A DNA stretch of 64,000 nucleotides from Nanobdellota archaeon. GTDB lineage: Archaea > Nanobdellota > Nanobdellia > Parvarchaeales > Parvarchaeaceae. The notes beneath the pieces were generated by a model. It ran no database searches. It saw nothing but the letters and a program-made list of their open reading frames with translations, and was not told the DNA's origin. The translations under genes and the position numbers were made by a program. Within the stretch, counting starts at the first letter, position 1; each line of letters opens with the position of its first letter. Location of the stretch: the NCBI GenBank assembly GCA_021810345.1, contig JAJZIX010000002.1, forward strand, positions 11,027 to 75,026, in the 5' to 3' direction. Positions 3,346-49,172 of the stretch are shown here, piece by piece.

Positions 3346-3419
3346 AAATATTGGATTCTGTTCATATAAAGCCGTTTCCCGAAAGTATTTATATTTGCTG
3401 GATGCAATTCTAAGTTAAT

Positions 3420-3492: not shown

Positions 3493-3621
3493 TCTTGATT
3501 CAGTTTAGTTATCTTATCATCTTTAAATAAAGTTAGATATGGGGTTTAAGATACAACTTAAAATTATCAAGTGTTTTTAGTAAATAGATACGGATTTAAG
3601 TGCAAAAAACATATAAAAACA

Positions 3622-4739: not shown

Positions 4740-4942
4740 AAGGTGTTTAGAAAACTGAATAAGCAAACGTCGCCGCATCAAGGTTTGATTTCAGTGCTTT
4801 GCGGCAAGCACGTTGTTCCGCATCACCAACGCAAACATTATAATCAGGTACAATATCGCCAACCCGATTATAAGCGGATTTACCATCTTTTCCCCCCACT
4901 ATTATATTGTTATTAGAATGCAACTTGCTTAAATATTTTTCT

Positions 4943-5701: not shown

Positions 5702-5729
5702 AATAATCCTTTTGTCTTTAAATCTACGC

Positions 5730-6440: not shown

Positions 6441-8140
6441 CTCCTTAATTTAAGTATATCGCTATACTTAAGTGCGTTTACCACATTCTTCTTTTCAAGC
6501 CACCCCCTTCTTGCGATCGCCGTTGCCAGCCTCAAAAACTTGAAGTGATCGACCCTGTGGGAGTCACTGCCGAGGGAGAACCTTATACCCTGCTCCTTTG
6601 CTTCCTTAACCATATCGAATGGCAAGTCAGATCGATCGGGGAACCCGTCTATCTCGAGAAGAGTATCATTTTTCTCACATGCATCAAATACTTTGTCGAA
6701 ATTGAGCGGCAGCGGGCTTCTCTGGTTTATTAGCCTGTCTGTTGGGTGTGCTACCGATGTTATCAAGCCGGTGTTTATGGCCTTTATCAGTCTGTCTGTA
6801 AGCTCTTCCCCGCCCATGTTCAGATTTTGATGAAGCGCCCCAAGCACAAAGTCCATATTTTTGAGTAGCCCGCTTGGTAGATCCAGCGACCCGTCTTTCA
6901 GTATTTCCAACTCAACACCCTTGAGTATTTTTACATTCGATTTTTCGTTCAGCTTGTCTATCTTCTTGTTTAAGACCCGGAATCTGTCTTCATCCAGGCC
7001 GTTTGCCACTCTGAGATTTTGGCTGTGGTTTGTGACAGCTATATAAGATAGCCCCGCCTTTTCTGCGGCTGCGACCATGGCCTCCAGGCCGTCTGCTCCG
7101 TCGCTGTCGTTCGTGTGGACATGGAGGTCGCCTACAACCTCATTGTATTCAATTATCTTAGGCAGCGTATGCGACAGAGAAGCCTCTATCTCACCCATAT
7201 TCTCACGCATCTCCGGCGGCATTATCTCTAACCCCAGGATTTTGTAAACTTCAGCCTCAGATTTACCGGCAATTCTGGTTTTGCCCTTGAATACACCATA
7301 CTCATTCAGCTTTAGCCCCTTTGATATCGCAATTTTCCTAAGTTTTACGTTGTGCTCTTTGTTGCCGGTAAAGTACTGTAGAGCTGCCCCAAATTCCTCC
7401 TTTTCGACGATCCTTAGGTCGCAGCTCAACCCTGCATCAAGGTCGACCGATGTTTTTTTGTCGCCTTTAACTATTATGTCTTTGACCTGCTTCATCTTTG
7501 TAAAATAGTCCATACCTGCTTTAGGGTTGTCAGAAACGCAAAGAATATCAAGATCCCCCACAGTCTCCTTCATCCTGCGCGTGGACCCTGCTATCTCAAC
7601 CTTCTCGAACAAGCCGCTTTTCGCAAGGTCATCCCTTAGCTTTTCCGCGTATTCTATCACAAGTCCAAGCAGCTTGCGACTCACATCTGTCTGGAGAAAG
7701 AAGTCCAGGTTCTTTTTTATCTCTTCTTCGCTCTTTTTTCCGAACCCGCTGAGCTCGCGTATCTCCTGTTTTTCCAGCGCTTTTTTAAGGTCATTTACAT
7801 CCTTTATACCAAGCTTTTTATACAGAACGTACAGTCTTTTTGGCCCGAGCCCCCTCATTTTCCTGAAGGTTGAGAAATCTATATTATACTTTTTCTTAAG
7901 CTTATCCCATTTTTCTATGTGCCCCGTTTTTATGTATTCCTCTATAGATCCGCCTATCGACTTGCCTATACCCTCGAGCTCCATCAGCTTTCCCTGCTTA
8001 TAGACATCAGATATATCGGCTCCAAGCGATAGAACCGTCAAAGCAGCAGTTCTGTATGCCCGCGGCTCCCATTGAACTCCTTCTATCTCAAGCATGTCAG
8101 CGATATCATACAACTTGTCTGCAAGTTCTTCGTTTGTCAT
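6437..8140 (-). CDS. polX: DNA polymerase X family (Pol beta-like) with a C-terminal PHP phosphoesterase domain
   Basis: 567 aa. N-terminal HhH region (LADKLYDIADMLEIEG...PRAYRTAA). Nucleotidyltransferase motif GSTRRMKETVGDLDIL. PHP histidines HVHTNDSDG ... NHS. Confidence 0.8.
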   Translation of the reverse strand: MTNEELADKLYDIADMLEIEGVQWEPRAYRTAALTVLSLGADISDVYKQGKLMELEGIGKSIGGSIEEYIKTGHIEKWDKLKKKYNIDFSTFRKMRGLGPKRLYVLYKKLGIKDVNDLKKALEKQEIRELSGFGKKSEEEIKKNLDFFLQTDVSRKLLGLVIEYAEKLRDDLAKSGLFEKVEIAGSTRRMKETVGDLDILCVSDNPKAGMDYFTKMKQVKDIIVKGDKKTSVDLDAGLSCDLRIVEKEEFGAALQYFTGNKEHNVKLRKIAISKGLKLNEYGVFKGKTRIAGKSEAEVYKILGLEIMPPEMRENMGEIEASLSHTLPKIIEYNEVVGDLHVHTNDSDGADGLEAMVAAAEKAGLSYIAVTNHSQNLRVANGLDEDRFRVLNKKIDKLNEKSNVKILKGVELEILKDGSLDLPSGLLKNMDFVLGALHQNLNMGGEELTDRLIKAINTGLITSVAHPTDRLINQRSPLPLNFDKVFDACEKNDTLLEIDGFPDRSDLPFDMVKEAKEQGIRFSLGSDSHRVDHFKFLRLATAIARRGWLEKKNVVNALKYSDILKLRR

Positions 8141-17486: not shown

Positions 17487-18887
17487 ATGCCGACGGAAGA
17501 CCTTAGAAGCAGTGGTAGAAAATGGGTTTCTTTGCAGTTCACCGATCTATCCGGCCAGCTAAGAGAAGTTATTATCTCTGAAGCGGAGCTGACCGATGAA
17601 AACAAGCGTGAAGGCTTCTCCAAGCTGGACGGAAGCAGCATACCTGGATTTGCAGGCATAGAAGAGAGCGATATGGTGCTGAAGCCGGATATGTCGACCG
17701 AAAGTACGTTACCGTGGGCAAAGCACACCAGGCGACTCATTAATGATATCTATTACAATAGAGACAGGCAGAGATTCGAGAAGGACCCAAGATATGTAGC
17801 GCAGGCTACGGAGATAAAGAGCGGAGGATTGGGTTACACCCTTTATTACGGTCCAGAGATGGAATTTTTCATATTGGATGGCTTTAAGTTTGATAATGCG
17901 ACCCCTTCTACTGGCTTGGGCTACAAGCTGTATTCGAGTGAAAACCCAGTGTCTGGAAATGCTCCATCAATACCTTACAAGGGAGGTTATTATGTCACAC
18001 AGCCTATGGACAAAACATATTCCGTGCGCTCTAAGATCATTGATACTCTTTCGAGCGATTTCGGCTTCAATATAGAAGCAGCCCACCACGAGGTTGCAAC
18101 AAATGGGCAGGTCGAGATAGACTTTAAGTTCGGAACGCTTGTCGAAACTGCGGATAGGGTCCAGACACTCAAATATGTTTCTAGAAATATCGCATCGCAG
18201 GAGGGCAAGATTGCCACTTTCATGCCGAAGCCATTCTTCGGGGACAATGGCAGTGGCATGCACGTAAACATGAGTTTTTGGGACAGCAAAAAGACGACCA
18301 ATCTGTTTTATGATAAGGATGATGAATACGCTCAGTTGAGTCAGATTGGGAGGTATGCAGTGGGGGGGATACTGTACCACTCACAGGCGCTCTCTGCTAT
18401 AGTCTCCCCGACTACTAACAGTTACAGGCGCCTTACACCAGGATTTGAAGCCCCGATCTACATAGCATGGGGCCGTGCCAACAGGAGTGCAATCGTCAGA
18501 GTCCCGGCTTATAAGATGGATATGCTAATAACAAAAAGATTGGAATACAGAGCGCCGGATCCTTCGGCTAACCCATATCTGGCATTTTCAGCGGTTGCTA
18601 TGGCTGCGATAGATGGAGTGACAAAGAAGATTGAGCCGGGTGATCCTGTAAACAGAAGCATTTACAAGATGAGCAGGCAAGAGGTAAAAGAACTGGGGAT
18701 AAAGGAGCTCCCAAGGAACCTGGAGGATGCTTTGGGTGCCCTTGAGTCTGACAATGACTTTTTACGACCAGTTTTTGCAAAGCCTTTGATCGATACTTAC
18801 ATTGATATAAGTCTGTCGGAAGCACGGGACTTAAACAGGTACCCAAGCCCGGTTGAAGTTGAGAGACTTCTAAGCAAGGGGATTTGA
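17487..18887 (+). CDS. glnA: Glutamine synthetase type I
   Basis: 466 aa. Has the GS beta-grasp and catalytic motifs (KPFFGDNGSGMHVNMS, NPYLAF). Confidence 0.9.
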   Translation: MPTEDLRSSGRKWVSLQFTDLSGQLREVIISEAELTDENKREGFSKLDGSSIPGFAGIEESDMVLKPDMSTESTLPWAKHTRRLINDIYYNRDRQRFEKDPRYVAQATEIKSGGLGYTLYYGPEMEFFILDGFKFDNATPSTGLGYKLYSSENPVSGNAPSIPYKGGYYVTQPMDKTYSVRSKIIDTLSSDFGFNIEAAHHEVATNGQVEIDFKFGTLVETADRVQTLKYVSRNIASQEGKIATFMPKPFFGDNGSGMHVNMSFWDSKKTTNLFYDKDDEYAQLSQIGRYAVGGILYHSQALSAIVSPTTNSYRRLTPGFEAPIYIAWGRANRSAIVRVPAYKMDMLITKRLEYRAPDPSANPYLAFSAVAMAAIDGVTKKIEPGDPVNRSIYKMSRQEVKELGIKELPRNLEDALGALESDNDFLRPVFAKPLIDTYIDISLSEARDLNRYPSPVEVERLLSKGI

Positions 18888-18920
18888 TAACTTTAAGAAT
18901 ATATAGTAATTCTTATAGTA

Positions 18921-19193
18921 ATGGAAGACGAAGAATTTGACAGGCTTCTAAGAGTCTGCAGGCTGAAAGTATCCGCCGAGCAAAGAAAAAAGCTCAAGTC
19001 CGATGCAGATGATATTCTTCATTATTTTGACAGGATAAGCGAGGTTCAGTGCGACGATATTCCTCCTGCATTTCATTCTGTGGATATTGATGGCAGGTAC
19101 AGAAAGGATGTGCCGTTAAAGTTCGATGACGTCGAGGGGATACTTAAAAACACAAAAACGCACAGGTTTTTTGTGGTAGGGCCGAGGATATGA
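18921..19193 (+). CDS. gatC: Asp/Glu-tRNA amidotransferase subunit C
   Basis: 90 aa. It immediately precedes gatA with ATGA overlap. GatC-like text: RLKVSAEQRKKLKSDADDILHYFDRISEV. Confidence 0.7.
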   Translation: MEDEEFDRLLRVCRLKVSAEQRKKLKSDADDILHYFDRISEVQCDDIPPAFHSVDIDGRYRKDVPLKFDDVEGILKNTKTHRFFVVGPRI

Positions 19194-20536
19194 CGTACGT
19201 CAATGAGTTCTTGAAGAAAGAGAAACCGGCCGATTATTACTCAAAGCTTCTGGAGGAGCTAGAGGAAAAAAACAACAAGTTTCATGCTTTCAATGTATTG
19301 AATAAGCGGATTTCGGATGGATTTCCAATCAGCGTAAAGGACAACATCTGCGTCAAAGGAATGGAAACGACCGCCTCATCGAAAATCTTAAAAGGATACA
19401 TCCCACCATTCAGCGCAACTGTGATAAAAAGGCTGGAGAAGGATGGTTTCAGCGTTCTCGGGAAAACAAATATGGATGAATTTGGGTTTGGTAGCTTTGG
19501 GATCAATTGCGAGGTGCCAGCAAGGAACCCGTTCGATGAGACGCGTGTGGCGGGAGGGTCAAGCAGCGGTGCTGCGGTGGCTACCTCTATAATGAAATAC
19601 CATGCTGCGGTTGCAGAGTCAACTGGCGGGTCGATAGCCGCCCCCGCTTCGTTCTGTGGGGTAGTCGGTTTCACTCCTACTTATGGGCTGATTTCAAGGT
19701 ATGGTCTGATAGATTACGCAAATTCGCTGGATAAGATAGGATTTATGGCACGGTCATCTGGGGATATACGTTTATTGATGAGTAAATCGGTGGGAGTGGA
19801 TCCAGCTGACACTACCTCCGTCGATGTTAAGCTGAGTGATGTAAAGAAAGAAAAAATTGTAGTAATAGACGAACTTTATGACAAGATAGACAAAAACATC
19901 AAGTTATCATTTGACAGCAGCCTCAGCAGGCTTTCAGCAGCGGGTTTTAAGGTGCAGCATGTCAGCATTCCGGAGATAGACTATTCGGTTCCGGTCTACT
20001 ATATAATCTCAATGGCTGAGGCATCGACCAATCTTGCTAAGTTTACTGGCTTCAAATATGGGCTGAAGGTTGATGATTTTTCGAAGGAATACAACGAATT
20101 CTTTACAGAGGCACGCGAAGCCTTCGGAGAGGAAGCCAAGCGTAAGATAATTCTTGGGACATTTATAAGGGGCGCAAGCGTTAGGAGCAAATATTATGAA
20201 AAGGCATTGAGGATAAGGCGGATCATAAGAGATAAGCTATCCAAAGTCTTGGATGACTCTTTCATTATCTCGCCTACGATGCCGGTATTGGCTCCGAAAG
20301 CAAAAGAAGCGGAAAGTTTTAGCCCTATCCAGAATTACTCGATGGACCTGCTCACAATACCGCCTAACTTGTGTGGGTTTCCGACGATTTCACTTCCATC
20401 AGATTACATCGATGGGCTTCCTGTTGGGCTGCAGCTCACCGGAGGGCAATTCGAGGATAATGGTCTAATCTCTTTTGGGGAACAGTGGGAGGACTCATTC
20501 AAGTACAAGTTTAAGTATAATATAGGTGAGCTATGA
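19190..20536 (+). CDS. gatA: Asp/Glu-tRNA amidotransferase subunit A (amidase signature family)
   Basis: 448 aa. Amidase signature GGSSSGAAVA...GGSIAAPASFCGVVGFTPTYG. Translationally coupled to gatC and gatB. Confidence 0.9.
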   Translation: MTYVNEFLKKEKPADYYSKLLEELEEKNNKFHAFNVLNKRISDGFPISVKDNICVKGMETTASSKILKGYIPPFSATVIKRLEKDGFSVLGKTNMDEFGFGSFGINCEVPARNPFDETRVAGGSSSGAAVATSIMKYHAAVAESTGGSIAAPASFCGVVGFTPTYGLISRYGLIDYANSLDKIGFMARSSGDIRLLMSKSVGVDPADTTSVDVKLSDVKKEKIVVIDELYDKIDKNIKLSFDSSLSRLSAAGFKVQHVSIPEIDYSVPVYYIISMAEASTNLAKFTGFKYGLKVDDFSKEYNEFFTEAREAFGEEAKRKIILGTFIRGASVRSKYYEKALRIRRIIRDKLSKVLDDSFIISPTMPVLAPKAKEAESFSPIQNYSMDLLTIPPNLCGFPTISLPSDYIDGLPVGLQLTGGQFEDNGLISFGEQWEDSFKYKFKYNIGEL

Positions 20537-21828
20537 AAATCGGTCTTGAGGTACATGTTGCTTTGCCCACACATTCGAAGCTGTTCTGCAGCTGTAGTAC
20601 AGCTGATGTAGATGAGCCGAACACGAATATCTGCCCGATATGCATGGGCTTTCCTGGTTCTAAGCCTTCGCTGAATGAAGAGGCCGTTAGGATAGCCAAG
20701 ACGATTGCGAATGCACTGAACTGCAAGATAAACCAGTCAATATCTTTTGTCAGGAAAGTCTACTTCTATCCAGACCTGCCAAAATCGTTTCAGATAACCC
20801 AACTTCAAGGCTCAATTGGATTAGAAGGAGAAGTAACGCTCTCCTCTTCCAAAGTACACATAAGGAGAATACAGATAGAGGAAGATCCGGCCAGGGTCAT
20901 AAGAGAAGCAAAGTACACACTGCTAGATTTCAATCGCTCGGGGATCCCTCTCGTTGAGATAGTCACCGATCCGGACATTGTCAGCGAGGATCAGCTGAGG
21001 GAGTTTCTGTTTGTTTTGAGGTCATTGCTTTACTATATTGGAGTTGACATAGATAAGGAGATAAAAGCCGATTTAAATATCTCCCTAGCAGAAAACAGGG
21101 TTGAGATAAAGAACGTTACCGGCATAAAAAATCTAGTGGATGCGGCAAGATACGAGATCAAAAGGCAGAGTGAAATAATAAAATCTGGTGGGGTGCCAGA
21201 GAAGGAGACAAGAAGCTATGATGAGAAGCCCCAGTCGACCATATCATCCAGAGAGAAGGAGAGCGATGAGGAGTATGGTTACATATACGAACCGGATCTG
21301 TCAGAATTTTCAGTTTCAGGGCTTACCGTGCCTGAACATATAGTCGATGCAAGGAAAGTCAGCAGGGAATTGGCCGAGAAGCACAATCTTGACTATAAAA
21401 CCCTTCTTGAGCTGATCGCATTCGACACAGAGGCAATGTCTTTGCTTAGGTATGGGCTTGAGAAAAGCGGTCTTCCAGCGGATGTTGTTGTAAACGCTTT
21501 GGAGGCGAAGAAAAGATTCGGGAAAGCCGTAAACGAAAAATCGCTTCCACTCCTAGCTGATTATATACAGAAGGGGATACAGATAGATCGTGATGTTATC
21601 ATGAGGATAGAGAAGGGGATGCCTCCTGCAGAAGTTGAAGTCTCAAATGAAGACACGGACAAGTATATAAAAGAAGAGCTGTCGGCAAATCCGGAGTTCA
21701 TAGAGAAATATAAGAAAAACCCAAAGGTTATTGATTTCATGGTGAACACTGTTTCCAGGAAGCATGGTATTCCACAGAAGAAAGTTGCGGACAGAATAAA
21801 GCATATATTGGCTGAATATCTTAAATAA
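20533..21828 (+). CDS. gatB: Asp/Glu-tRNA amidotransferase subunit B
   Basis: 431 aa. The N-terminus MKIGLEVHVAL...CPICMGFPGSKP is the GatB/GatE metal-binding signature. Confidence 0.9.
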   Translation: MKIGLEVHVALPTHSKLFCSCSTADVDEPNTNICPICMGFPGSKPSLNEEAVRIAKTIANALNCKINQSISFVRKVYFYPDLPKSFQITQLQGSIGLEGEVTLSSSKVHIRRIQIEEDPARVIREAKYTLLDFNRSGIPLVEIVTDPDIVSEDQLREFLFVLRSLLYYIGVDIDKEIKADLNISLAENRVEIKNVTGIKNLVDAARYEIKRQSEIIKSGGVPEKETRSYDEKPQSTISSREKESDEEYGYIYEPDLSEFSVSGLTVPEHIVDARKVSRELAEKHNLDYKTLLELIAFDTEAMSLLRYGLEKSGLPADVVVNALEAKKRFGKAVNEKSLPLLADYIQKGIQIDRDVIMRIEKGMPPAEVEVSNEDTDKYIKEELSANPEFIEKYKKNPKVIDFMVNTVSRKHGIPQKKVADRIKHILAEYLK

Positions 21829-21835
21829 CTCTAGC

Positions 21836-23626
21836 ATGGAAGTGGATTGTGGTAGGATAAGAGATCATGATATCGGCAAAGAAGTTGTTCTAAACGGCTG
21901 GTGTCGGTACATACGCGACCACGGTGGGCTACTTTTCGTAGATTTAACGGATAGATACGGCACCACGCAGCTTGTTTTCGAGGGTGCGCTGAAAAAAGAG
22001 GCGGAAGAACTGGGAAAAGAATATGTTATATCAGTGACCGGCGTAGTCGACAAGAGGGATAGTGACACAGTAGATGCGTCAAATCCGACTGGTACTGTCG
22101 AACTGCGCGTCAAATCCTTCAAAATAATCAACAAATCGAAAGTAATTCCGTTTGAGATAACAGAGGAGAAGGAAAAGTTCCTGCCATCCGATGATCTACG
22201 ACTTAAGTATAGGTATCTTGACCTGAGAAGGAAAAAGATGCTGAGAAATGTTGAATTCAGGGATAAGATCACAAAAACCATAAGGAAGTTCTTCTGGGAT
22301 GAGGGATTTCTAGAACTTGAGACTCCAATACTCGTAAAGGACACATACGATGCAAGCGGCTCAAGAACTTTCATAACTCCTTCAAGGATGCACAAAGGGA
22401 AGTTTTACGGCCTGCCGCAATCTCCTCAGGTGTACAAGCAGTTATCAATGATTGCCGGGCTTGATAAATATTTTCAGGTGGCAAAAGTCTTCAGGGATGA
22501 AGACCCAAGGGAAGACAGGCAGCCAGAATTCACGCAGATTGATCTTGAAGTGTCATTCAAAGACGAGAAGTACATACAAAACCTAATCGAATCAATGTTT
22601 AAGAGAGTATTTGACGAGGTAATGGGCGAGAAGCTTGAGGTCCCTTTCCCACACATAGATTACTTGGATGCGATGAGGATGTATGGATCAGATAAACCAG
22701 ACATGCGCTTTGACAATGTTTTATTCGACCTGACTGACGAGATGTCAAAAAGTGATTATAACATAATAAAGAAGGTAATATCCGCCGGTGGCAGAGTGAA
22801 AGCATTGAAGTTCCCTGCAGACATGGGCAAGAAATCACAGAAAATCGACAAGAAAAAGATACTTGAATTAGTGGAGATAGCTAAGAACCTTGGCCTTAAA
22901 GGCCTGACGTGGGTTTATGTCGTTGATGGAAAAATAGAGTCCGATCCGCCGTCGATTGCGGCTTCGCTTGCGGGGATAAGTGGGCAGATAATATCAAAGT
23001 TAGATGCACATGAAGGCGATTTGGTACTCATAGGGTCCGATCCATCGGAAAATGTCCTTCTGGCTGCCATGTCGAAGATAGGGAGGGTAGTGGGGCTGGT
23101 TTTGAGACAAACAAAGAAGAAGTATGCGTTTTTGTGGGTGGACAAGTTCCCTCTGTTTGAAAAGGATGAAGTCACGGGAGAGCTGCAGCCCATGCACAAC
23201 CCATTTGTTGCACCTACGGAAGAAACAGAGGGCCTCCTTGATTCAGCGCCAGAAAAAGTGCTCGGTAAGCGCTACGACCTTGTCTTGAACGGAATGGAAA
23301 TAGGAGGCGGCTCGCTCAGGATCCATAACCCTGATATGCAGAGGAAAGTACTGTCAAAAATGGGCCTGTCAGACGCCGAGATAGAGAGATCTCTCGGCTT
23401 TCTTATTGAGGCCTTGTCTTTTGGGGCACCGGTACACGGCGGGATAGCCCTCGGTTTCGACCGCGTTGTCGCTACATTGAGCGGTGAATATGATATAAGG
23501 GACTTTATACTGTTTCCAAAGAACAGGAAATTTGAGTCTCCGCTAGATGGTTCTCCTGATTATGTCAGCGACAAAAGGCTACAGGATGACTATGATCTTT
23601 CCGTCAAAAACGAGAAAAAAAGTTAG
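21836..23626 (+). CDS. aspS: Aspartyl-tRNA synthetase, bacterial type with a GAD insertion domain (probably non-discriminating)
   Basis: 596 aa. N-terminal OB anticodon-binding domain. Class II motifs FRDED...RQPEFTQIDLE and GGGSLRIHN...GFDRVV. A ~130 aa insertion (FDLTDEM...LVLRQ) corresponds to the bacterial GAD domain. Confidence 0.85.
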   Translation: MEVDCGRIRDHDIGKEVVLNGWCRYIRDHGGLLFVDLTDRYGTTQLVFEGALKKEAEELGKEYVISVTGVVDKRDSDTVDASNPTGTVELRVKSFKIINKSKVIPFEITEEKEKFLPSDDLRLKYRYLDLRRKKMLRNVEFRDKITKTIRKFFWDEGFLELETPILVKDTYDASGSRTFITPSRMHKGKFYGLPQSPQVYKQLSMIAGLDKYFQVAKVFRDEDPREDRQPEFTQIDLEVSFKDEKYIQNLIESMFKRVFDEVMGEKLEVPFPHIDYLDAMRMYGSDKPDMRFDNVLFDLTDEMSKSDYNIIKKVISAGGRVKALKFPADMGKKSQKIDKKKILELVEIAKNLGLKGLTWVYVVDGKIESDPPSIAASLAGISGQIISKLDAHEGDLVLIGSDPSENVLLAAMSKIGRVVGLVLRQTKKKYAFLWVDKFPLFEKDEVTGELQPMHNPFVAPTEETEGLLDSAPEKVLGKRYDLVLNGMEIGGGSLRIHNPDMQRKVLSKMGLSDAEIERSLGFLIEALSFGAPVHGGIALGFDRVVATLSGEYDIRDFILFPKNRKFESPLDGSPDYVSDKRLQDDYDLSVKNEKKS

Positions 23627-24723
23627 ATCCGCTCGCCGCACAGGCTTTCTGTCATCATTTTTATAATTTGATCGTATTTTTTGGTTATCCCGGTCACATA
23701 CATCAGCTTTACAATTGCATCCTCGTCATGGAGGCTTCCAAGGCCAACAGCGCCCGCTTCCTTCAGCTTATAGTTTACATCGTATGCGTTGCATCCCTCC
23801 AACTTTACTGCGCCATCATCGCATTGGGTACAGACAAAGACGGGTACTTTATTCTGAATTGAGTACTTTACACCATCGATCACCGAGTCTTTTTCTGTAT
23901 TGACTCCACCCGAGCCAAACGCAGAAAGGACAATCCCATCCACTTTGTCTTTTACTGCGCTGTACAACACATCTGAGCCCATGCCTGGAAATGCTTTAAT
24001 CAACCTCACATTTCTGTTGAAGCCGCTTGAGTACTGGTTTTTTGGCTTAGGTGATACGTTGCTGTCGATGTTTTTGTTTATGTATATCTCGCCGTCAAAT
24101 ATGAAACCTGCATATTCCTCGTTTATGCTTCTGAATGCATCAAGCTTGTCAGGAGATATTTTTGTCGCATTCATCCCGCTTATTACTTTTGATCCGAAGA
24201 CGATGTAAACGCCCTTCAGCTTGCTGTACCCTGCGACTGTAAACGCATTTGCCATGTTGCTTGGTGCGTCGCTGCCATCTTCCGATAAAGGCACCATCGA
24301 GCCGGTCATTATCACAGGTTTATTTATACCGCATAGAAGAAGAGAAAGTGCACTCGATGTATAGTGCATCGTGTCTGTGCCATGGGATATAACAAATCCA
24401 TCGTAAATATCGTCGTTCTCCAGAATATATTTGGAGATCTTCTCCCATTCCTCGGGGGTCATGTTTGAGCTGTCAATGGGCTTGATAAGATCATCAACTT
24501 TATTATAGTCTACAAGCTTGTCCAACGTAAGTGATCCGCAGTTTAATTCACCTTTGTTTGCTATTCTCAGCCTGCCGGTATTCTTATCTTTTATTTGGTC
24601 TATTGTTCCGCCGGTTCTTATCCAGCAAATCTTTGGCTTCTTTGGTCTTTTTTCTTTATCAAGAGGTGAGTAGTCGTGGAAGGAGATACCAAGAATTTTT
24701 GCAAATTCCTCCGCAGTCGACAT
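23623..24723 (-). CDS. L-asparaginase / GatD-like asparaginase-family protein
   Basis: 366 aa. Asparaginase motifs WIRTGGTIDQ and HGTDTM. A ~40 aa N-terminal extension makes it longer than plain type I asparaginase and shorter than canonical GatD. Confidence 0.7.
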   Translation of the reverse strand: MSTAEEFAKILGISFHDYSPLDKEKRPKKPKICWIRTGGTIDQIKDKNTGRLRIANKGELNCGSLTLDKLVDYNKVDDLIKPIDSSNMTPEEWEKISKYILENDDIYDGFVISHGTDTMHYTSSALSLLLCGINKPVIMTGSMVPLSEDGSDAPSNMANAFTVAGYSKLKGVYIVFGSKVISGMNATKISPDKLDAFRSINEEYAGFIFDGEIYINKNIDSNVSPKPKNQYSSGFNRNVRLIKAFPGMGSDVLYSAVKDKVDGIVLSAFGSGGVNTEKDSVIDGVKYSIQNKVPVFVCTQCDDGAVKLEGCNAYDVNYKLKEAGAVGLGSLHDEDAIVKLMYVTGITKKYDQIIKMMTESLCGERI

Positions 24724-27161: not shown

Positions 27162-28571
27162 ATGAAGAGTTCATTTATAGGTACAATAATAGCCGTTGTC
27201 GTTGTTATTATAGTGGTCGCTGCAGTCTTATCCTACATCTCAACTCATCCTTCTACTACTAAGCCGGTTACAACACCGCCGGTTACAACACCGCCGGTTA
27301 CAACGATAAGTTACTGGGAGGCTTACAGTCCATCTGAATTGAGCACCTTCAATAATAAGATCTTGCCATTATTTGAGGCGCAGTATCCAAATATAAAAGT
27401 AGTAGTAACCAACGTTGCTTTGAGTACTTCAAACTATGAAACGGATGCGGCTGCGCACAAAGCACCAAATGTATACTACGATTCAAGCAATGACGAGGGT
27501 CTTCTTTATGCGGGCGGATTTATACTAAACCTAAGAAATTATATATCAAATTCCTCTTACTTTAATCAGTTTACGAGTGGTACAATAGCTGCGGAGAGCT
27601 CAGGAACAGCGATGTTTGGCCTTCCGGTAAATGAGAACTCAATCCTCATGTTCTATGATAAAGCAGATTTTCCTAATGGGATAGCAAATAATACAAACGC
27701 TCTGATTACGCAGGTAGAAGCCATAAATAAGACAGGAGTGTGGGGCTTTGCATACGGTATGGGCGCAGACTATGGTTACAGATTCGCGGCATGGCTGCCT
27801 GGCTTTGGTACTTACATATTTGCAAATAAAACAACCGGACCAGTTACCCTAAACAACTCAGCGATGATAAATACACTGGAATTCTGGTATAATTTGACTT
27901 ACATAGATCATCTGAACGCCCCATTGGGATCTGGTAGCGGCGTAGCCGGAGCGAGTGGGCTCGAGGGATCACTATTCGAATCAGGTAAAGCTGCTATAAT
28001 ATTTGATGGGCCTTGGGACTTGGTTCCGCTTGTTAAAGCGCTGGGTTCAAACCTTGGTGCAGCTCCGTTACCGCAAGTTTCTTCAACAGGGAATTATTTC
28101 GCTCCATTAATTGGATCTGAAGGCATTGCAGTGTCTTCATCGCAGGCCAGTGGCGCATCAGCAGCACAAATTAATGCTTCAATACTATTCGCTAAGTTTT
28201 TAGCATCACCAGAGGCAGAACTTTTAATGTACAATGGGACCGGTGACCTGCCTTCCGACAGCGGCGCTTTGAACTCTTTGATAGCACAGGCAAATAAAGG
28301 CACTCTTCTGCCTGCTTTCGCCGCGGCTGAGAATTTGACGGCTTCAAGTTTTGATCCCGTAGAAGTGGGTATACTTGCCCAGGAGAGTGGTCACACATCT
28401 CCTACACCTAGTACGCCACAGATGAACTATTACTATAGCGGAGTTGCAGATATGCACACAGAGATGGGTCTTTATTATACTAATAAGACAATATCGGCAC
28501 CGGCAGTAGCAAGCTGTGTACAGGCTTTCATCGAGAGCAATTCCACGAATGTACTGGCTTCCTGCAGCTAA
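27162..28571 (+). CDS. ABC transporter substrate-binding protein, CUT1 (maltose/oligosaccharide) family, membrane anchored via an N-terminal TM plus a Thr/Pro-rich linker
   Basis: 469 aa. N-terminal TM, then a TTKPVTTPPVTTPPVTT linker, then a periplasmic binding-protein fold. First gene of the permease operon. Confidence 0.75.
   Translation: MKSSFIGTIIAVVVVIIVVAAVLSYISTHPSTTKPVTTPPVTTPPVTTISYWEAYSPSELSTFNNKILPLFEAQYPNIKVVVTNVALSTSNYETDAAAHKAPNVYYDSSNDEGLLYAGGFILNLRNYISNSSYFNQFTSGTIAAESSGTAMFGLPVNENSILMFYDKADFPNGIANNTNALITQVEAINKTGVWGFAYGMGADYGYRFAAWLPGFGTYIFANKTTGPVTLNNSAMINTLEFWYNLTYIDHLNAPLGSGSGVAGASGLEGSLFESGKAAIIFDGPWDLVPLVKALGSNLGAAPLPQVSSTGNYFAPLIGSEGIAVSSSQASGASAAQINASILFAKFLASPEAELLMYNGTGDLPSDSGALNSLIAQANKGTLLPAFAAAENLTASSFDPVEVGILAQESGHTSPTPSTPQMNYYYSGVADMHTEMGLYYTNKTISAPAVASCVQAFIESNSTNVLASCS
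27264..27305 (+). repeat. 15-nt tandem repeat (ccggttacaacaccg x 2.8) encoding the PVTTP linker
   Basis: Direct reading of 27264-27305. Confidence 0.9.
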
Positions 28572-28668
28572 AGCCCAAAATTTATTTGATTTGAATTTTA
28601 TTTTGTTGTTTTTGTAGTAAGGTAATACTAACCTAAAAGTATTAATGTGATTAAACGCTTTTATTAGG

Positions 28669-29574
28669 ATGGATTTCTCTTCGAAATTTTCATTTAAAAA
28701 TTTGAAAAGCGGTTCTATAAACTATATTTATCTTCTTCCTATAATAGCTCTGATTCTTTTTATCTTCCTCTACCCGATTACTTATGGAATTTATATCTCA
28801 TTTACGAACTTCAGCCTACAGCATTTTTATACCGCTACACTTGTCGGCTTTCATAATTATGTGCTGCTATTCAAAAATGGACTGATCTACCCAATCATCT
28901 TGCAGACGCTTATATGGACAGTTGGTAGTCTAGTACCTATGGTCCTGCTTGGATTGCTAGTTGCAAATATACTAAACCAAAAAGGTTTCAAGTTCCGCGG
29001 CCTGCTTTTTACGCTGATACTTTTGCCATGGGCATTCCCCGCATTTATATCCTTGTTGATATGGTCAGGGATGTGGAATACAAGCTTTGGGATAATAAAT
29101 CAGTTCTTATCAGTTTTTGGCCTACCGCGCATTGACTGGCTCTTCAAAACCGTTCCTGCTTGGACTGCTTTGATCATAACAAACCTCTGGCTTTCGTTTC
29201 CTTACTATACTGCTTTCTTTTTATCTTCTATGCAAAGTATACCGGATGAATTCCATGAAGCTGCAAAGGTGGACGGCGCCAACATATTTCAGCGTTTCAG
29301 TAAGGTTACATGGCCAGCAATAAAGGGAGCAATAGCCTTTGCAGGCATAAGCGGGTTTATATTTACGTGGAATAACTTTTACCCGATATACATATTGACT
29401 GGTGGCGGGCCCGGAACCAGTACGTATTCACTGACGGTTTTTGCTTATAATCAAGCCTTTGATTTCTATAATTACTCTTTGGGTGCCGCGTTTTCTGTGG
29501 TTTCGATAATAATACTGGCCGTCATGGCGATCTTCATGCTGAAATACACAAAAGTCTTGGAGATGTTAACATGA
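28669..29574 (+). CDS. ABC sugar transporter permease (MalF-like)
   Basis: 301 aa, 6 TM, with the EAA-like loop FHEAAKVDGANIFQRF. Confidence 0.8.
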   Translation: MDFSSKFSFKNLKSGSINYIYLLPIIALILFIFLYPITYGIYISFTNFSLQHFYTATLVGFHNYVLLFKNGLIYPIILQTLIWTVGSLVPMVLLGLLVANILNQKGFKFRGLLFTLILLPWAFPAFISLLIWSGMWNTSFGIINQFLSVFGLPRIDWLFKTVPAWTALIITNLWLSFPYYTAFFLSSMQSIPDEFHEAAKVDGANIFQRFSKVTWPAIKGAIAFAGISGFIFTWNNFYPIYILTGGGPGTSTYSLTVFAYNQAFDFYNYSLGAAFSVVSIIILAVMAIFMLKYTKVLEMLT

Positions 29575-29575
29575 G

Positions 29576-30448
29576 GTGTATAAAATGAACATAAATAAGT
29601 ATAAAGTTTTTGATGTTTTGAGGTGGACTATCTCCTATTTCCTAATAGCGATAGTAGTGCTTTTTGCAATATTCCCACTCTATTACATTGTATTGACTTC
29701 TTTCAGTAAACTCTCCTCTATCTCTGCTCTTACCTTAAGCAGTTTAATACCAAATCTTTCGAATATGACACTTTCTGCTTACCAGTATGTGCTGAGCAGC
29801 CAGTTTGCTTTATGGTTAGGTAATAGTCTGCTTCTTGCTGTAGGGACATTGGCTGTTGCCGTTACGGTCGCTTTTGTATCAGGGGTTGCTTTGGCTAGGC
29901 TAAATATCTCTGGAAAGAAAGCACTGATAGTATTCCTGTATATACTTACTTTCTTCCCTTTCACAGCGATAGTAATACCATTATATTTGAGTTTTTCGTC
30001 ATTGGGGCTGATAAACAACTATATCGGGCTGATAATGATATACGCAGCCGGCACAGCAATCTTCGGTGCTTACATGTCAAAGATCTTCATAGACAGCATA
30101 CCGAAGGAGTATGAAGAAGCGGCAATGGTAGACGGGCAAAGCAGATTCAAGTCATTTTTCACGATTCTTTTCAGGATCGCAAAGCCAGTCGTAATATTCG
30201 TCGCTCTTCTAGCTTTCATAGGCGCCTACACAGACTATGCAGTTATCAATGTATTTGTGACGCAGGGGTCCCTTTACACGCTGATGCTTGGGTTGTACCA
30301 TGTTTCATCAATCGGCGGCGGAGCGTCTGCGGTTAATTTGAATGTATTCTCCGCTTTCTCGATTCTGATGGGCCTGCCGATTATAGCGTTTTACGTGGTG
30401 TTTCAGAAATACCTTACGCAGATGTACACTATGAGCGGCACAAAATGA
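29576..30448 (+). CDS. ABC sugar transporter permease (MalG-like)
   Basis: 290 aa, 6 TM, with the EAA loop YEEAAMVDGQSRFKSF. Confidence 0.8.
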   Translation: MYKMNINKYKVFDVLRWTISYFLIAIVVLFAIFPLYYIVLTSFSKLSSISALTLSSLIPNLSNMTLSAYQYVLSSQFALWLGNSLLLAVGTLAVAVTVAFVSGVALARLNISGKKALIVFLYILTFFPFTAIVIPLYLSFSSLGLINNYIGLIMIYAAGTAIFGAYMSKIFIDSIPKEYEEAAMVDGQSRFKSFFTILFRIAKPVVIFVALLAFIGAYTDYAVINVFVTQGSLYTLMLGLYHVSSIGGGASAVNLNVFSAFSILMGLPIIAFYVVFQKYLTQMYTMSGTK

Positions 30449-32211
30449 AAAGTTATACAACACCGATAGTCATCGTGATAATAGTCCTTGTGGTAGCACT
30501 GGCGCTTTTTTACAGCTTGCCAGTACATAAGTCCGTCCTAAACTACAACCTGCAGTACTACAATAGCTCCGTGTCTTCCTTGCTCATGAGCAACTGGGTA
30601 AATAATTCTGCCTTTATCTATACAGGCGTTCCCGACAAAGAGATAGGGTTAGCTGGAAATGCATCGATATACCATATCCTGCTGCCAGCTTATGGCTTGC
30701 TGCATGATAAGATCACTTTTTCTGGTGGAAACACAACTTCAGCTGAACTAAATTTATACAATCAAGTACGCCTTAACAGGACTTACTCATCCGACATTAT
30801 AACGATGCCATTCAATTCGAGCGATATAATAATAGAACAGAACTCGACATCGGCGAATGATCTAACATTCACGTCTCCTCATGACTACAGTTACTCGGTA
30901 AAAAACAACACGGCTTATCTTTATGGGACACCGAATATAACAATATTTTCCAAAGGCTCTACGTTTACTGTTATTAACAAAAGCAACCAGACGGAGGTCT
31001 TAATAGAAAACCCAGGCAATATGGGGGTTGAACTTGCATTCTCCAGTCAGATCAAGCCGATTCAGCAGCTAATTGCCTATAATGATAAGTACATAAGCGG
31101 CTGGCTAGATTCTTCAAAAAACATAAGCTTGTCCAGTACTTTCAAGGATGAATACTACCTCTCTCTGCTTTTAGTAAAGGACGATCAAAACCCCATAACC
31201 GGCGAGTTTGCTGCTTCTCCTTCGCCTATATACCTTTACTCATGGGTCAGGGATTCATCCTTTGCAGCAATGGCTATGCAGGATTCCGGCCACCTGAACT
31301 CCGCCGAAAAATACTGGAATTGGATGTCAAGCATGGAAAACTCAAACGGAACCTGGTTTACTCGGTATAACTTCTGGACTTCGGCTCCAGACACTTCATA
31401 TGGGATACCAGAGTACGACAGTGTAGGGCTTTTCCAGATAGGGGTGTCAAATCTCCTTAATATCACAGGCAACAAGTCGCTTGTAAATACCTACCTGCCT
31501 TATATAAACCGGTCTATACTTTGGGAAGAAAAGAGCATAGAGAATGACAGTTTGATCCCCCAAGATCTTAGCATCTGGGAAGACGTCATGGCATACAATT
31601 TCTGGACTCAGGCGATTGATCTTGTCGGTATGGAGCAGACTAAAAGTTCGTTCGGCAGCGCTTATCCAGGTTCTTCCCTTGTAAATTCTATAAGCATTCT
31701 CAATAGCTCAATACAGAAAGATTTCTATAATGGCAGCCTTTATGCAGAGTATCTGTACCCCTCCGATGAGTATGTGAACGAAAAACTGACTACAATGCTT
31801 GTTCCTTACACAATTGCTGACTCATCGTCTATACTTCCGATAGCTTATGGGCTTGTGAATGTCGATAGCAACGAAGCAAAAAGCGATATTAATGCGATGG
31901 TGGGCGCTCTCACAGTAAACGGCGGGCTTGCAAGGTTCACTGGGGATGATTACCATTATTCCACGTCATTATATGATAGTTCTGGCCCAATGCCGCCATG
32001 GATAATAACAACGCTTTTCCTGGCCTATTACTATGAAAAGACGGGGAATTATCTTGGCGCTTACAATGAGATGAGCTGGGCATTGCAGCACGCACAGAAC
32101 GGCCTTTTGCCAGAAGCCGTAGACCCGAATTACGGGAACCCTTTAAGGACAACATCTCCTCTCACTTGGTCATCAGCAATGTATATTTTGACGGCCCTTA
32201 ATTACAAATAA
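30445..32211 (+). CDS. Glycoside hydrolase family 15 (glucoamylase/glucodextranase/trehalase-like), N-terminally membrane anchored and extracellular
   Basis: 588 aa. N-terminal TM. (alpha/alpha)6-barrel signatures include YLYSWVRDSSFAAMAM. Many N-x-S/T sequons. Translationally coupled to the permease. Confidence 0.65.
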   Translation: MKSYTTPIVIVIIVLVVALALFYSLPVHKSVLNYNLQYYNSSVSSLLMSNWVNNSAFIYTGVPDKEIGLAGNASIYHILLPAYGLLHDKITFSGGNTTSAELNLYNQVRLNRTYSSDIITMPFNSSDIIIEQNSTSANDLTFTSPHDYSYSVKNNTAYLYGTPNITIFSKGSTFTVINKSNQTEVLIENPGNMGVELAFSSQIKPIQQLIAYNDKYISGWLDSSKNISLSSTFKDEYYLSLLLVKDDQNPITGEFAASPSPIYLYSWVRDSSFAAMAMQDSGHLNSAEKYWNWMSSMENSNGTWFTRYNFWTSAPDTSYGIPEYDSVGLFQIGVSNLLNITGNKSLVNTYLPYINRSILWEEKSIENDSLIPQDLSIWEDVMAYNFWTQAIDLVGMEQTKSSFGSAYPGSSLVNSISILNSSIQKDFYNGSLYAEYLYPSDEYVNEKLTTMLVPYTIADSSSILPIAYGLVNVDSNEAKSDINAMVGALTVNGGLARFTGDDYHYSTSLYDSSGPMPPWIITTLFLAYYYEKTGNYLGAYNEMSWALQHAQNGLLPEAVDPNYGNPLRTTSPLTWSSAMYILTALNYK

Positions 32212-33294
32212 TCAGTTTTCCATCCTCATGCCGGTTTTAGAATCAAACATGACTATGCTTTCATCTGATAGGTCTATGTTAATCTCTTTATTCAGCTCCA
32301 CCGTGTGCATTTGGAATGCTATAGCATCCAGCTGAATCTTGCCTACGACAAGGTGGAGGATCGTCTCAGACCCCAGTGGCTCAACGAATTTTATGGTCGC
32401 CTTGACATTTCCCTCGTTTATTTTTATGTTCTCAGGTCTTATTCCAAGTATGGCCTTTCCCTTTTTGACTTTTAGGATTTTTGATATAGAAGGTGGTATC
32501 TTTATCTTGTTGTCTTCGAACTGGAAGGTTTTTTCATCAAGCAGCTCACCCTCTATAAGGTTCATTGGAGGGTTGCCTATGAACTTTGCGACCCAAGTGT
32601 CTTTTGGCTTCCTGTAAACTATCAGAGGGTCATCAACCTGCTCTATCTTGCCGGCGTGCAGGATTGCAACCTGATCTGCCAGAACCATCGCTTCGGTCTG
32701 GTCGTGCGTAACATAAACTATAGTGGTCTTTAGCCTTTTTTGCAGCTCCTTAAGTTCGGCTCTTGCAAGGGTCCTAAGCTGTGCGTCTAAATTGGATAAA
32801 GGCTCGTCCAAAAGCAATAGATCCGTGCCCTTTATAAGCGCTCTTGCTATCGCGACTCTTTGTCTCTGCCCCCCGGACAGCTGGGATGGTCTCCTGTCCA
32901 AAAGCTCCCCTATCTCAAGCATCTTTGAAACTTCTTTGACCTTTTTGTCTATCTCATCCTTTGGAGCATGGGCTATCTTAAGCGGAAAGGCTATGTTATC
33001 GTATACGTTCATAAACGGATAAATTGCATAGTTCTGGAATACCATCGCAAGTTTCCTGTCCTTTGGCGGGGTATCATTGACTATCTTATCCCCTATGTAA
33101 ACGTCGCCGCTGTCCTGCTTTTCTAAGCCGGCTATCACTCTTATAAGAGTTGTTTTACCCTCACCAGATGGGGCAAGAACGACTGTGAATTTGCTTTCTG
33201 GTATCTCCAGCGTAACACCTTGGAGCACGTTAACGACCTTACTCTTGTGTTTGAAAGATTTGTATATGTTTTTGAGTGCTACCTTAACCATCAA
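32212..33294 (-). CDS. ABC sugar transporter ATP-binding protein (MalK/UgpC-like, with C-terminal TOBE domain)
   Basis: 360 aa. Walker A (PSGEGKTT), Q-loop, signature LSGGQRQR, Walker B (LLLDEP) and a C-terminal regulatory domain. Confidence 0.85.
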   Translation of the reverse strand: MMVKVALKNIYKSFKHKSKVVNVLQGVTLEIPESKFTVVLAPSGEGKTTLIRVIAGLEKQDSGDVYIGDKIVNDTPPKDRKLAMVFQNYAIYPFMNVYDNIAFPLKIAHAPKDEIDKKVKEVSKMLEIGELLDRRPSQLSGGQRQRVAIARALIKGTDLLLLDEPLSNLDAQLRTLARAELKELQKRLKTTIVYVTHDQTEAMVLADQVAILHAGKIEQVDDPLIVYRKPKDTWVAKFIGNPPMNLIEGELLDEKTFQFEDNKIKIPPSISKILKVKKGKAILGIRPENIKINEGNVKATIKFVEPLGSETILHLVVGKIQLDAIAFQMHTVELNKEINIDLSDESIVMFDSKTGMRMEN

Positions 33295-33354
33295 TTTATT
33301 TAGTTGTTATAGTATTTATTTCTTTGCTAATATAGTAAGTATGTGGTGTAAGCT

Positions 33355-34494
33355 ATGAAAGTATATCAAATCTTTGTGGATAGGTTTTCTACGGGAAATC
33401 CAGCCGTGGACAAAAAACTGGCTTACAAAACCTCAAAAAACAGGCTGGGCGGAAACCTGCGCGGAATAATAAACAAACTCGATTACATCAAGAGCTTGGG
33501 CTTTGACGCAATATGGCTAACGCCGATTTTTTCTGCAATGGATTATCATGGATATTCCACGCTTGACTTCTACAGCGTAGACAAGCACTTTGGCTCGAAT
33601 GAAACATTGAAGGAACTGGTTAACAAGGCGCACGCTATCGGTTTAAAGGTGATACTGGATTTTGTGGCAAATCATGTCTCGAATAAGCATAAATTTTTCA
33701 TATCGGCGCTTAATGACAAAAGCAGTGTCTACAGGAACTGGTTTGTTTTTGGCAGGAACAACAGCTACATGTCATTCTTGGACGTGAAGGAGCTGCCTAA
33801 ACTAAACACAAAAAACCGCGATGTGGTGAATTACCTTATAGACGCTGCCCTGTATTGGATTAGAGACTTTGGGATTGATGGTTATAGGCTCGACCATGCT
33901 ATAGGCCCTACGCTGGAGTTCTGGAAAGAGTTCACAGCCGCCTGCCTGAAGCTCAATAAAAACTTCGTTTTTCTCCCAGAAATCTGGTTGTCTGGCATAG
34001 ATCCGGCCTATTCAGACACACTGTGGTTCATGCAGGATGAGGAAACACGGCTAAAGTTCATCCCTATATTCAAAAAGAACAAGGGCCTTAGTTGGGATAA
34101 GATACCCTCTGCTGACGGTGAGGAGCTGGCTGATCTGATGTTTAAAGGGATATTTGACACCCCTCTGGATTTTTCAGCAAACAAAGCCATAAGAAGCGGC
34201 AGATACACAAACAACAGGAACAACAACGGTTTTGTGTTCGCTGATAACCATGATATGCAGAGAATAAGCTGGATCCTTAATGGGGACAAATCTGCCATCG
34301 ATTCTGCGGTAAAATCAGTTTGGCAGGCCAATAATTCTATAGTTTACTATGGCACTGAGATTTACCTGTCCCAACTCAACGATTTTGCGAAGTTTAAATC
34401 ATTTTCGGACAAGGAATGCAGGCGGTTTATGGACTGGTCCAAAGCGACCCGGGAGAATGTAGACAGGTTCAGGAAACTGTTTTTGCAGGTTTGA
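33355..34494 (+). CDS. Alpha-amylase family (GH13) catalytic-domain protein
   Basis: 379 aa. Has the GH13 regions DAIWLTPIF, VILDFVANHVS and GIDGYRLDHA. Confidence 0.75.
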   Translation: MKVYQIFVDRFSTGNPAVDKKLAYKTSKNRLGGNLRGIINKLDYIKSLGFDAIWLTPIFSAMDYHGYSTLDFYSVDKHFGSNETLKELVNKAHAIGLKVILDFVANHVSNKHKFFISALNDKSSVYRNWFVFGRNNSYMSFLDVKELPKLNTKNRDVVNYLIDAALYWIRDFGIDGYRLDHAIGPTLEFWKEFTAACLKLNKNFVFLPEIWLSGIDPAYSDTLWFMQDEETRLKFIPIFKKNKGLSWDKIPSADGEELADLMFKGIFDTPLDFSANKAIRSGRYTNNRNNNGFVFADNHDMQRISWILNGDKSAIDSAVKSVWQANNSIVYYGTEIYLSQLNDFAKFKSFSDKECRRFMDWSKATRENVDRFRKLFLQV

Positions 34495-44347: not shown

Positions 44348-44349
44348 GT

Positions 44350-49168: not shown

Positions 49169-49172
49169 TGAA

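Follow-up and report, generated by a model that had tools for sequence, protein, structure and literature searches.

Genes for an archaeal-type GatCAB amidotransferase and a bacterial-type aspartyl-tRNA synthetase form one cluster in a DPANN archaeon of ARMAN type

Operons joining aspS to the amidotransferase genes gatCAB occur in bacteria, where fusions of aspartyl-tRNA synthetase (AspRS) with GatC have an NCBIfam model of their own (NF009460). In the Pseudomonas aeruginosa transamidosome (PDB 4WJ3), an AspRS containing a GAD domain is combined with a GatCAB whose GatB has cradle, helical and tail domains; the two-AspRS system of Thermus and Deinococcus (PDB 3KFU) pairs a bacterial GatCAB with an acquired archaeal-type, non-discriminating AspRS (ND-AspRS2). 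In archaea of the Methanothermobacter thermautotrophicus type, AspRS is the archaeal-type enzyme of ~430 aa, GatB lacks the 3_10 turn of its bacterial counterpart (PMC2811023), and the host also has GatDE for Gln. Methanomassiliicoccales, too, have been reported to form Asn-tRNA via an amidotransferase (PMC4153887). A 2022 review describes the archaeal asparagine transamidosome as being without the AspRS GAD domain (PMC9499178), a domain regarded as specific to bacterial AspRS and used to tell bacterial-type from archaeal-type enzymes (PMC4206432). In the papers that we searched, there was no description of a GAD-type AspRS in archaea or DPANN, or of one coupled to GatCAB in archaea. Here, we report on a gatC-gatA-gatB-aspS cluster in a stretch of 64 000 nt (hereafter, the window) from a Nanobdellota archaeon (assembly GCA_021810345.1, contig JAJZIX010000002.1, positions 11 027 to 75 026), which probably encodes tRNA-dependent asparagine formation by an archaeal-type GatCAB and a bacterial-type AspRS that is non-discriminating and dedicated to it. 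The cluster and the features flanking it are as follows.

17487-18887, plus strand: glnA, type I glutamine synthetase, 466 aa (TIGR00653, 523.1 bits against a cut-off of 429.15; Pfam Gln-synt_N and Gln-synt_C)
18892-18905, plus strand: AT-rich, TATA-like element tttaagaatatata, read off the sequence ~16-29 nt 5' of the gatC ATG
18921-19193, plus strand: gatC, 90 aa (TIGR00135, 52.7 bits against a cut-off of 47.1; Pfam GatC, E = 2e-10)
19190-20536, plus strand: gatA, amidase-signature glutaminase subunit, 448 aa (Pfam Amidase, E = 1e-97; TIGR00132, 447.7 bits, below the cut-off of 481.1)
20533-21828, plus strand: gatB, apparently archaeal-type, 431 aa (Pfam GatB_N, E = 2e-83; NF004012, 337.7 bits against a cut-off of 338)
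21836-23626, plus strand: aspS, bacterial-type AspRS with a GAD insertion, 596 aa (NF001750, 647 bits against a cut-off of 443)
23623-24723, minus strand: type I L-asparaginase, 366 aa (PF00710, E = 3e-50; PF17763, E = 6e-23)

The six genes named in the initial annotation (glnA, gatC-gatA-gatB-aspS and an asparaginase-family gene) are all open reading frames (ORFs) at these positions, and the family assignments of glnA, gatC and aspS are firm, all three scoring above curated cut-offs. Not every junction of the operon is an ATGA start/stop overlap, as had been claimed: gatC/gatA (19190-19193) and gatA/gatB (20533-20536) overlap in this way, but the TAA stop codon of gatB (21826-21828) and the aspS start at 21836 are separated by a spacer of 7 nt. 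The glutamine synthetase gene does flank the cluster, ending 33 nt 5' of gatC, and this interval holds the TATA-like element, a putative archaeal promoter of a near-leaderless gatCAB-aspS transcript. A similar element, gcttatatat, is found 5' of glnA, which is probably a transcription unit of its own. At the other end, aspS and the asparaginase gene are convergent and their stop codons overlap by 4 nt.

The operon AspRS is clearly bacterial-type, with every test run in agreement, as the initial annotation had proposed for this 596-aa protein. In addition to the class II core (PF00152, E = 1e-104) and the N-terminal OB domain (PF01336, E = 3e-14), it contains a GAD domain (PF02938, E = 9e-12) at residues 311-408. 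Besides NF001750, it exceeds the cut-off of the bacterial AspRS model TIGR00459 (594 bits against 374), whereas the scores for the archaeal-type models NF003483 (207 bits) and TIGR00458 (195 bits) are under the models' own cut-offs. The closest PDB chains are those of Thermus AspRS1 and the Escherichia coli enzyme (433-436 bits), with 420 bits for the AspRS of the P. aeruginosa transamidosome (4wj3_M) and 123-127 bits for archaeal-type chains. The ~600-aa GAD-type enzyme and its place in a translationally coupled operon thus set the window apart from the M. thermautotrophicus type. A functional link between aspS and gatC is shared with the bacterial AspRS-GatC fusions, but only the AspRS part of NF009460 is matched (482 bits against a cut-off of 1379), and in the window gatC stands as a gene of its own, as far from aspS as the operon allows.

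By contrast with the synthetase, GatA and GatB look archaeal, their nearest homologues being those of Thermoplasmata. GatA is 53% and 46% identical to homologues from Thermoplasmata and Methanomassiliicoccales and 42-44% identical to those of Aquifex and Thermotoga, and its N-terminus is ~25 residues shorter than that of bacterial GatA. The match to Aquifex GatA (337 bits) preserves the VKDN Lys and the GGSS and TGGSI motifs, which were also aligned to Thermotoga; the Ser-cisSer-Lys triad is intact by motif alignment. For the N-terminal (cradle) domain of GatB, identity is ~50% to Thermoplasmata and Methanomassiliicoccales and 42-44% to Aquifex and Thermotoga, the two best-matching bacterial structures. 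Bacterial GatB has a conserved 3_10 turn (K-M-E), placed between helix alpha2 and strand beta11, that reads the U1-A72 pair (Nakamura et al., PMC2811023), whereas the loop at this site is 1-3 residues shorter in archaeal GatB and the first base pair is unread (PMC2811023). The window GatB has GV---DIDK-EIKAD where Aquifex has GVSKADMEKGQLRCD, and is thereby four residues short of both the Aquifex and the Thermotoga protein; for the Thermoplasmata and Methanomassiliicoccales proteins, the difference from bacterial GatB is one residue. A 7-residue bacterial insertion before RVEIKN is absent from all archaeal GatB compared, including that of the window, and the Lys-rich tail motif is shorter by two residues in the window clade. 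The indel comparison rests on two bacterial reference fragments, from Aquifex and Thermotoga, and is indicative rather than phylogenetic.

No Pfam match to the tail domain GatB_Yqey (PF02637) was found in the window GatB, even at E = 10, and we considered the possibility that the protein is devoid of the tRNA-binding tail. This was rejected: the domain is matched in 44 of the 73 GatB members of the clade, and an AlphaFold2 model of the window protein (pLDDT 89.4) superposes over its full length on solved GatB structures, with query TM-scores (TMq) of 0.67-0.80, so the missing match reflects sequence divergence and not loss. Taken together, Pfam matches, clade members and model indicate a cradle, a helical domain and a short YqeY-like tail. 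This architecture is shared with the P. aeruginosa complex (TMq of 0.70 to 4wj3_B) and with Thermus (TMq of 0.80 to 3kfu_F). Unlike the P. aeruginosa GatB, that of the window lacks the 3_10 turn and the 7-residue insertion and has a shortened Lys-rich tail motif, and its loop and tail motif are shorter still than those of the M. thermautotrophicus type. The GatB proteins of Thermoplasmata and Methanomassiliicoccales (444-457 aa) differ from it in that their GatB_Yqey domain can be detected and their Lys-rich motif is fuller. In two other archaeal lineages with a GAD-type aspS beside gatCAB, the gatB genes (L035:11881-12990, minus strand; L036:3955-5079, plus strand) encode proteins of just 369-374 aa, in which most of the helical and tail region is missing from the alignment; tail-based tRNA binding may have been lost or replaced in these proteins.

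Because GatA and GatB are archaeal-type and GatB is without the bacterial 3_10 turn and 7-residue insertion, the cluster is best described, on its sequence, as a hybrid of archaeal-type GatCAB and bacterial-type AspRS rather than an imported bacterial module. The hybrid arrangement is old, conserved within the lineage and shared with Thermoplasmata. The order gatC-gatA-gatB-aspS is kept in ~20 of the 25 related loci from GTDB species, and three loci (L002, L034 and L036) have the order aspS-gatCAB instead. In one of the loci (L005:3732-4195), a second gatC followed by a short gatA fragment (residues 4-66) lies ~2.2 kb upstream of the intact gatCAB, which looks like a partial duplication of the start of the operon.

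Among more distant relatives, GAD-type aspS adjoins gatCAB in two Thermoplasmata loci (L033 and L035) and two from Methanomassiliicoccales (L037, in the complete genome CP058896.1, and L038). In both Methanomassiliicoccales loci, gatCAB is convergent with an aspS of 606-608 aa carrying the RDHGG motif, and genes for an AsnC-family regulator, AlaX and GlnA are found just beyond aspS, with glnA within 4-7 kb. The Thermoplasmata/Methanomassiliicoccales neighbourhood, gatCAB-aspS(GAD)-alaX-glnA, is thus similar to the window in its archaeal GatCAB, GAD-type AspRS of 606-611 aa with RDHGG and nearby glnA. It differs in that aspS is convergent with gatCAB, whereas it is co-directional in the window, and the AspRS proteins are just 42-45% identical to that of the window, their common origin being without resolution in neighbour-joining (NJ) trees. 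An alaX-like gene (tRNA-synt_2c, mostly with tRNA_SAD and/or DHHA1; 392-402 aa) adjoins the GAD-type aspS in L033, L035, L037 and L038; there is none near the window aspS.

At 50% clustering of the AspRS sequences, the whole window clade collapses into one representative, matched with 855 bits. The next three matches (541, 514 and 512 bits; 45-47% identity) are all archaeal: one comes from a Thermoplasmata contig on which 1.3 kb separate aspS and gatCAB, one from an archaeal contig whose gatCAB is convergent and one from a Woesearchaeota-labelled metagenome-assembled genome (MAG) with the order aspS-gatCAB; bacterial AspRS from Planctomycetota, Bacillota and Aquificota follow at 42-44% identity. 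In NJ bootstrap analysis, the window clade was recovered in 200 of 200 replicates, its union with two other DPANN-like sequences in 167 and the grouping of Thermoplasmata with Methanomassiliicoccales in 197; beyond the immediate sister pair, support was at most 36 of 200 and the deeper nodes were without resolution. A bacterial donor was sought in this tree and none was identified, most representatives being without an organism name. The initial annotation was right that a bacterial GAD-type AspRS is unusual for an archaeon, in the sense of being atypical of textbook archaea, but the enzyme falls within archaeal clades that normally carry GAD-type enzymes, a result that the initial annotation had itself named as refuting its interpretation.

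These data bear on the suggestion, also made in the initial annotation, that the whole gatCAB-aspS cluster is a bacterial transamidosome module acquired horizontally, possibly recently. The unambiguously bacterial AspRS with its GAD domain, the appearance of bacterial phyla just past the few archaeal sequences and the existence of bacterial aspS-gatCAB operons and AspRS-GatC fusions are all in its favour. Nevertheless, GatA and GatB are nearer to archaeal than to the best bacterial homologues and GatB has archaeal indels; gene order is kept across many species; GC and GC3 (GC content at third codon positions) of the cluster genes are within the range of the neighbouring genes, that is, native; and the single 50% cluster, the large score gap (855 versus 541 bits) and the full bootstrap support for monophyly bespeak a long residence in the lineage. 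We consider transfer of the entire module very unlikely. What survives of the suggestion concerns AspRS only: this protein is of bacterial ancestry, but its acquisition is ancient and nothing points to a transfer specific to the window genome. Compared with the P. aeruginosa system, the archaeal affinity of GatA and GatB and the joining of the four genes in one archaeal operon are the distinguishing traits; complex formation is a prediction.

The gene identities, domain content and catalytic motifs agree with the original proposal that the cluster encodes the indirect Asn-tRNA(Asn) pathway, with the same two-step chemistry as in P. aeruginosa. In the predicted scheme, the operon AspRS, being non-discriminating, would charge tRNA(Asn) with Asp; GatA would hydrolyse Gln to ammonia; and GatB would phosphorylate and then amidate the tRNA-bound Asp, with Gln, the amide donor, made by the GlnA encoded next door. 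The ATGA overlaps and the spacer of only 7 nt between gatB and aspS would help the subunits to be translated together and in fixed proportions, suited to the assembly of a transamidosome, and the operon AspRS may be the dedicated partner of GatCAB, because a second aspS copy is usual in such genomes (see below). The putative non-discrimination is consistent with His29 of the RDHGG motif, a residue invariant in 120 of 120 clade members. Its aligned counterpart is likewise His in the PDB chain 4rmf (RRDHGG), deposited under the name Asp/Asn ligase, but Leu in two discriminating enzymes, the AspRS of E. coli and Thermus AspRS1 (RRDLG). His29 corresponds to position 31 of the P. aeruginosa AspRS, which has His there as well. 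Bernard et al. are said to have found in 2006 that His at this position marks non-discriminating bacterial AspRS, with Gly83 'usually' also present; of this signature, the operon AspRS carries one half, the His and not the Gly.

A different assignment for the amidotransferase would be Glu-tRNA(Gln), or both Asp and Glu substrates, in which case AspRS would be no more than a discriminating housekeeping enzyme under shared regulation. GatCAB of bacteria does have dual specificity in vitro (PMC2811023), and the reduced recognition elements of the window GatB could relax specificity. However, archaeal GatCAB strongly prefers Asp-tRNA(Asn) (PMC2811023), the tight and conserved linkage is to aspS and not to gltX, AspRS has the His signature, and a second aspS tracks gatAB across genomes. 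Furthermore, nearly every ARMAN genome has gatD and gatE (13 of 14 Parvarchaeota each; 25 and 24, respectively, of 29 Micrarchaeota), and Gln-tRNA(Gln) is therefore already covered. A Glu-directed or dual role for GatCAB is highly improbable. Replacement of GatDE by GatCAB for Gln was rejected for the lineage on the same counts.

These counts derive from the KEGG Orthology (KO) table of Chen et al. 2018 (PMC5864196, Table S6), which covers 29 Micrarchaeota and 14 Parvarchaeota draft MAGs annotated with KAAS. In this table, gatA and gatB are found in 8 of 29 Micrarchaeota and 13 of 14 Parvarchaeota, asnS in 26 and 9, and asnB in 1 and 12, respectively; asnA (K01914) is absent. Two or more aspS copies are present in 16 of the 21 gatB-positive genomes and in none of the 22 gatB-negative ones (Fisher p = 8e-8; 43 ARMAN genomes). 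Accordingly, a second AspRS is likely in the lineage, and it is presumably the archaeal-type housekeeping enzyme. The system would then resemble that of Thermus and Deinococcus, with apparently two AspRS genes per genome, one of them dedicated to GatCAB, but in mirror image: there, a bacterial GatCAB works with an acquired archaeal-type ND-AspRS2; here, the archaeal-type GatCAB would have a bacterial-type AspRS as its partner.

The initial annotation called for checks on asparaginyl-tRNA synthetase (AsnRS) and on a second AspRS, which the KO table allows at the level of the lineage. The second aspS, as noted, tracks gatAB; for AsnRS the picture is divided. Both glnA and the L-asparaginase gene are assigned exclusively to 'group 1' (PMC5864196), to which, we infer from gene content and NCBI labels, the window genome belongs. 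The three Parvarchaeota genomes with both genes have gatAB, two aspS and gatDE and no asnS, and two of the three have asnB. Thus, AsnRS is probably absent in the window's subgroup, although many of the other genomes with the cluster do have it. The latter fact suggests another reading, in which the genome also encodes AsnRS and the cluster, instead of being the sole route for charging tRNA(Asn), serves mainly to make asparagine, as in Thermus and Deinococcus. An asnS match in 7 of the 8 gatAB-positive Micrarchaeota and 9 of the 13 gatAB-positive Parvarchaeota, the lack of asnB from all 8 of these Micrarchaeota and of asnA throughout the table, and the asparaginase gene beside the cluster are all compatible with such a role. 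The three genomes most similar to the window argue against it, through their lack of asnS and the presence of asnB in two of them, as does, weakly, the absence of asnS from the 64-kb window. On balance, we regard this reading as possible but rather unlikely. A tblastn search for AsnRS, GatE and a second AspRS in ~580 kb of sequence (the window and related loci) found none, a result that is uninformative because all the loci represent the same genomic region.

Several points weigh against the assignment of the cluster to a dedicated Asn-tRNA(Asn) pathway. GatA and GatB, although strong family matches, score slightly under the NCBIfam equivalog cut-offs, and since both tRNA-recognition elements of GatB are shortened, its substrate specificity is uncertain. 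Of the His31/Gly83 pair attributed to Bernard et al. 2006, the Gly is lacking: its equivalent is residue 77 of AspRS, where 85 of the 120 clade members have Asp and 30 have Glu, opposite the Gly of PEG in 4rmf. The placement in group 1 is indirect, and the KO table describes automatically annotated drafts. An AsnRS match is also present in the majority of the other GatCAB-carrying ARMAN genomes, in which the pathway would be non-essential for charging. Finally, genes for tRNA(Asn) and tRNA(Gln) were sought in the window and 31 loci and none were found. The only tRNA gene of the window is that for tRNA-Asp(GTC) at 3419-3494, an ordinary one with a G1-C72 pair and G73; the initial annotation correctly reported its presence, but it lies 14 kb from the cluster and nothing ties it to the latter.

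The asparaginase gene had been described as GatD-like, and its product could, in principle, be an ammonia-generating subunit partnering GatB. It does match the GatD models NF003217 (185.9 bits) and TIGR02153 (181.4 bits), and asparaginase-family genes recur beside the cluster in six loci. But these scores are far under the cut-offs of 310 and 324, and the matches begin at position 54-68 of the models, the ~65-residue N-terminal domain of GatD being absent. The best PDB matches are chains deposited as L-asparaginase (150-162 bits, compared with 103-119 bits for GatD chains), and the TGGTI and HGTDT motifs, including the catalytic Thr, are aligned. The GatA catalytic triad is intact, and the asparaginase gene, encoded on the other strand, is missing from the majority of the related loci. 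A GatD-like function is therefore extremely improbable and was rejected; by domains, motifs and structural matches, the protein is a type I L-asparaginase, even though its score against TIGR00519 (220.6) is below the cut-off of 260.5. It may simply interconvert free Asn and Asp. Its association with the cluster is only loose and involves two different positions: downstream and convergent in the window, L001 and L025, or directly 5' of gatC on the same strand, as a divergent asparaginase-family ORF, in L006:5296-5913, L012:5814-6998 and L015:5821-6693. For the L012 ORF, of 394 aa, the type I asparaginase model gives 136 bits, which is under its cut-off. As for glnA, it is near aspS/gatCAB in 8 of the 25 related loci, at differing positions and on differing strands, and also in both Methanomassiliicoccales loci.

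The window is archaeal, because it encodes fibrillarin, aNOP56 and an archaeal KaiC-like protein and the close homologues of its proteins all come from DPANN MAGs. Judging from these homologues, the host is an ARMAN-type (acid-mine) DPANN archaeon, with its closest relatives labelled Parvarchaeota. Contig DAICJL010000032.1 of assembly GCA_027370835.1 and several metagenome contigs carry a gatB whose product is identical to that of the window. The nearest GTDB species, labelled Candidatus Parvarchaeota, has the same order sod-glnA-gatCAB-aspS-asparaginase-FMN reductase and an AspRS 88% identical to that of the window. The best 120 AspRS homologues are all at least 54% identical to it, and the named ones are from Parvarchaeota or Micrarchaeota or are evident mislabels.

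Elsewhere in the window, a DNA-repair cluster at 4080-8140 comprises genes for endonuclease III (4080-4739), exodeoxyribonuclease III (4943-5701), a KaiC/RadA-like ATPase (5730-6440) and PolX with a PHP domain (6437-8140). Genes for the uptake of sugars and the use of starch are clustered at 27162-34494; their products, a solute-binding protein and two permeases, a MalK-type ATPase, a GH15 glucoamylase-like protein and an alpha-amylase, represent a notable metabolic capacity for a DPANN genome. The gene at 38010-39449 (plus strand) encodes a cytochrome b-like membrane protein of 479 aa, which agrees with the report of PetB in ARMAN-type genomes (PMC8407392). The stretch 44000-58000 is of low GC content (0.30-0.39, against ~0.43 elsewhere), contains many short ORFs without a Pfam match and a nucleotidyltransferase gene (50826-51461), and may be a variable or mobile region; directly upstream of it, at 39714-40927 (minus strand), lies a type IV toxin-antitoxin pair of an AbiEi-like antitoxin and an AbiEii nucleotidyltransferase toxin. 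Three long ORFs are without a Pfam match at the thresholds used: 1924-3345 (473 aa), 42370-43632 (420 aa) and 35833-36768 (311 aa), all on the plus strand.

The known chemistry of tRNA-dependent asparagine formation is unchanged by these observations and no recent transfer is indicated in the window genome; the pathway is an ordinary one in an under-described hybrid form. A bolder proposition would be that a fourth kind of asparagine transamidosome, as yet undescribed, operates in DPANN archaea of the ARMAN type and perhaps in Thermoplasmata, with an archaeal-type GatCAB obligately paired with a laterally acquired bacterial GAD-type AspRS beside a housekeeping archaeal-type AspRS. GatB is trimmed in both elements linked to tRNA discrimination, the 3_10-turn region and the Lys-rich tail motif, with most of the tail lost in the relatives with a GatB of 369-374 aa; in such a complex, it would then fall to the dedicated AspRS to choose tRNA(Asn) over tRNA(Asp). 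We put this forward only as a speculation and think it more doubtful than not by a good measure. What can be said more firmly is that, contrary to reviews, whole archaeal groups (ARMAN-type DPANN, Thermoplasmata and Methanomassiliicoccales) couple a GAD-type AspRS, often a second aspS copy, to an archaeal-type GatCAB. For the evolution of aminoacyl-tRNA synthetases, they provide a mirror case to Thermus and Deinococcus and a natural test of co-adaptation between the type of AspRS and the recognition elements of GatB.

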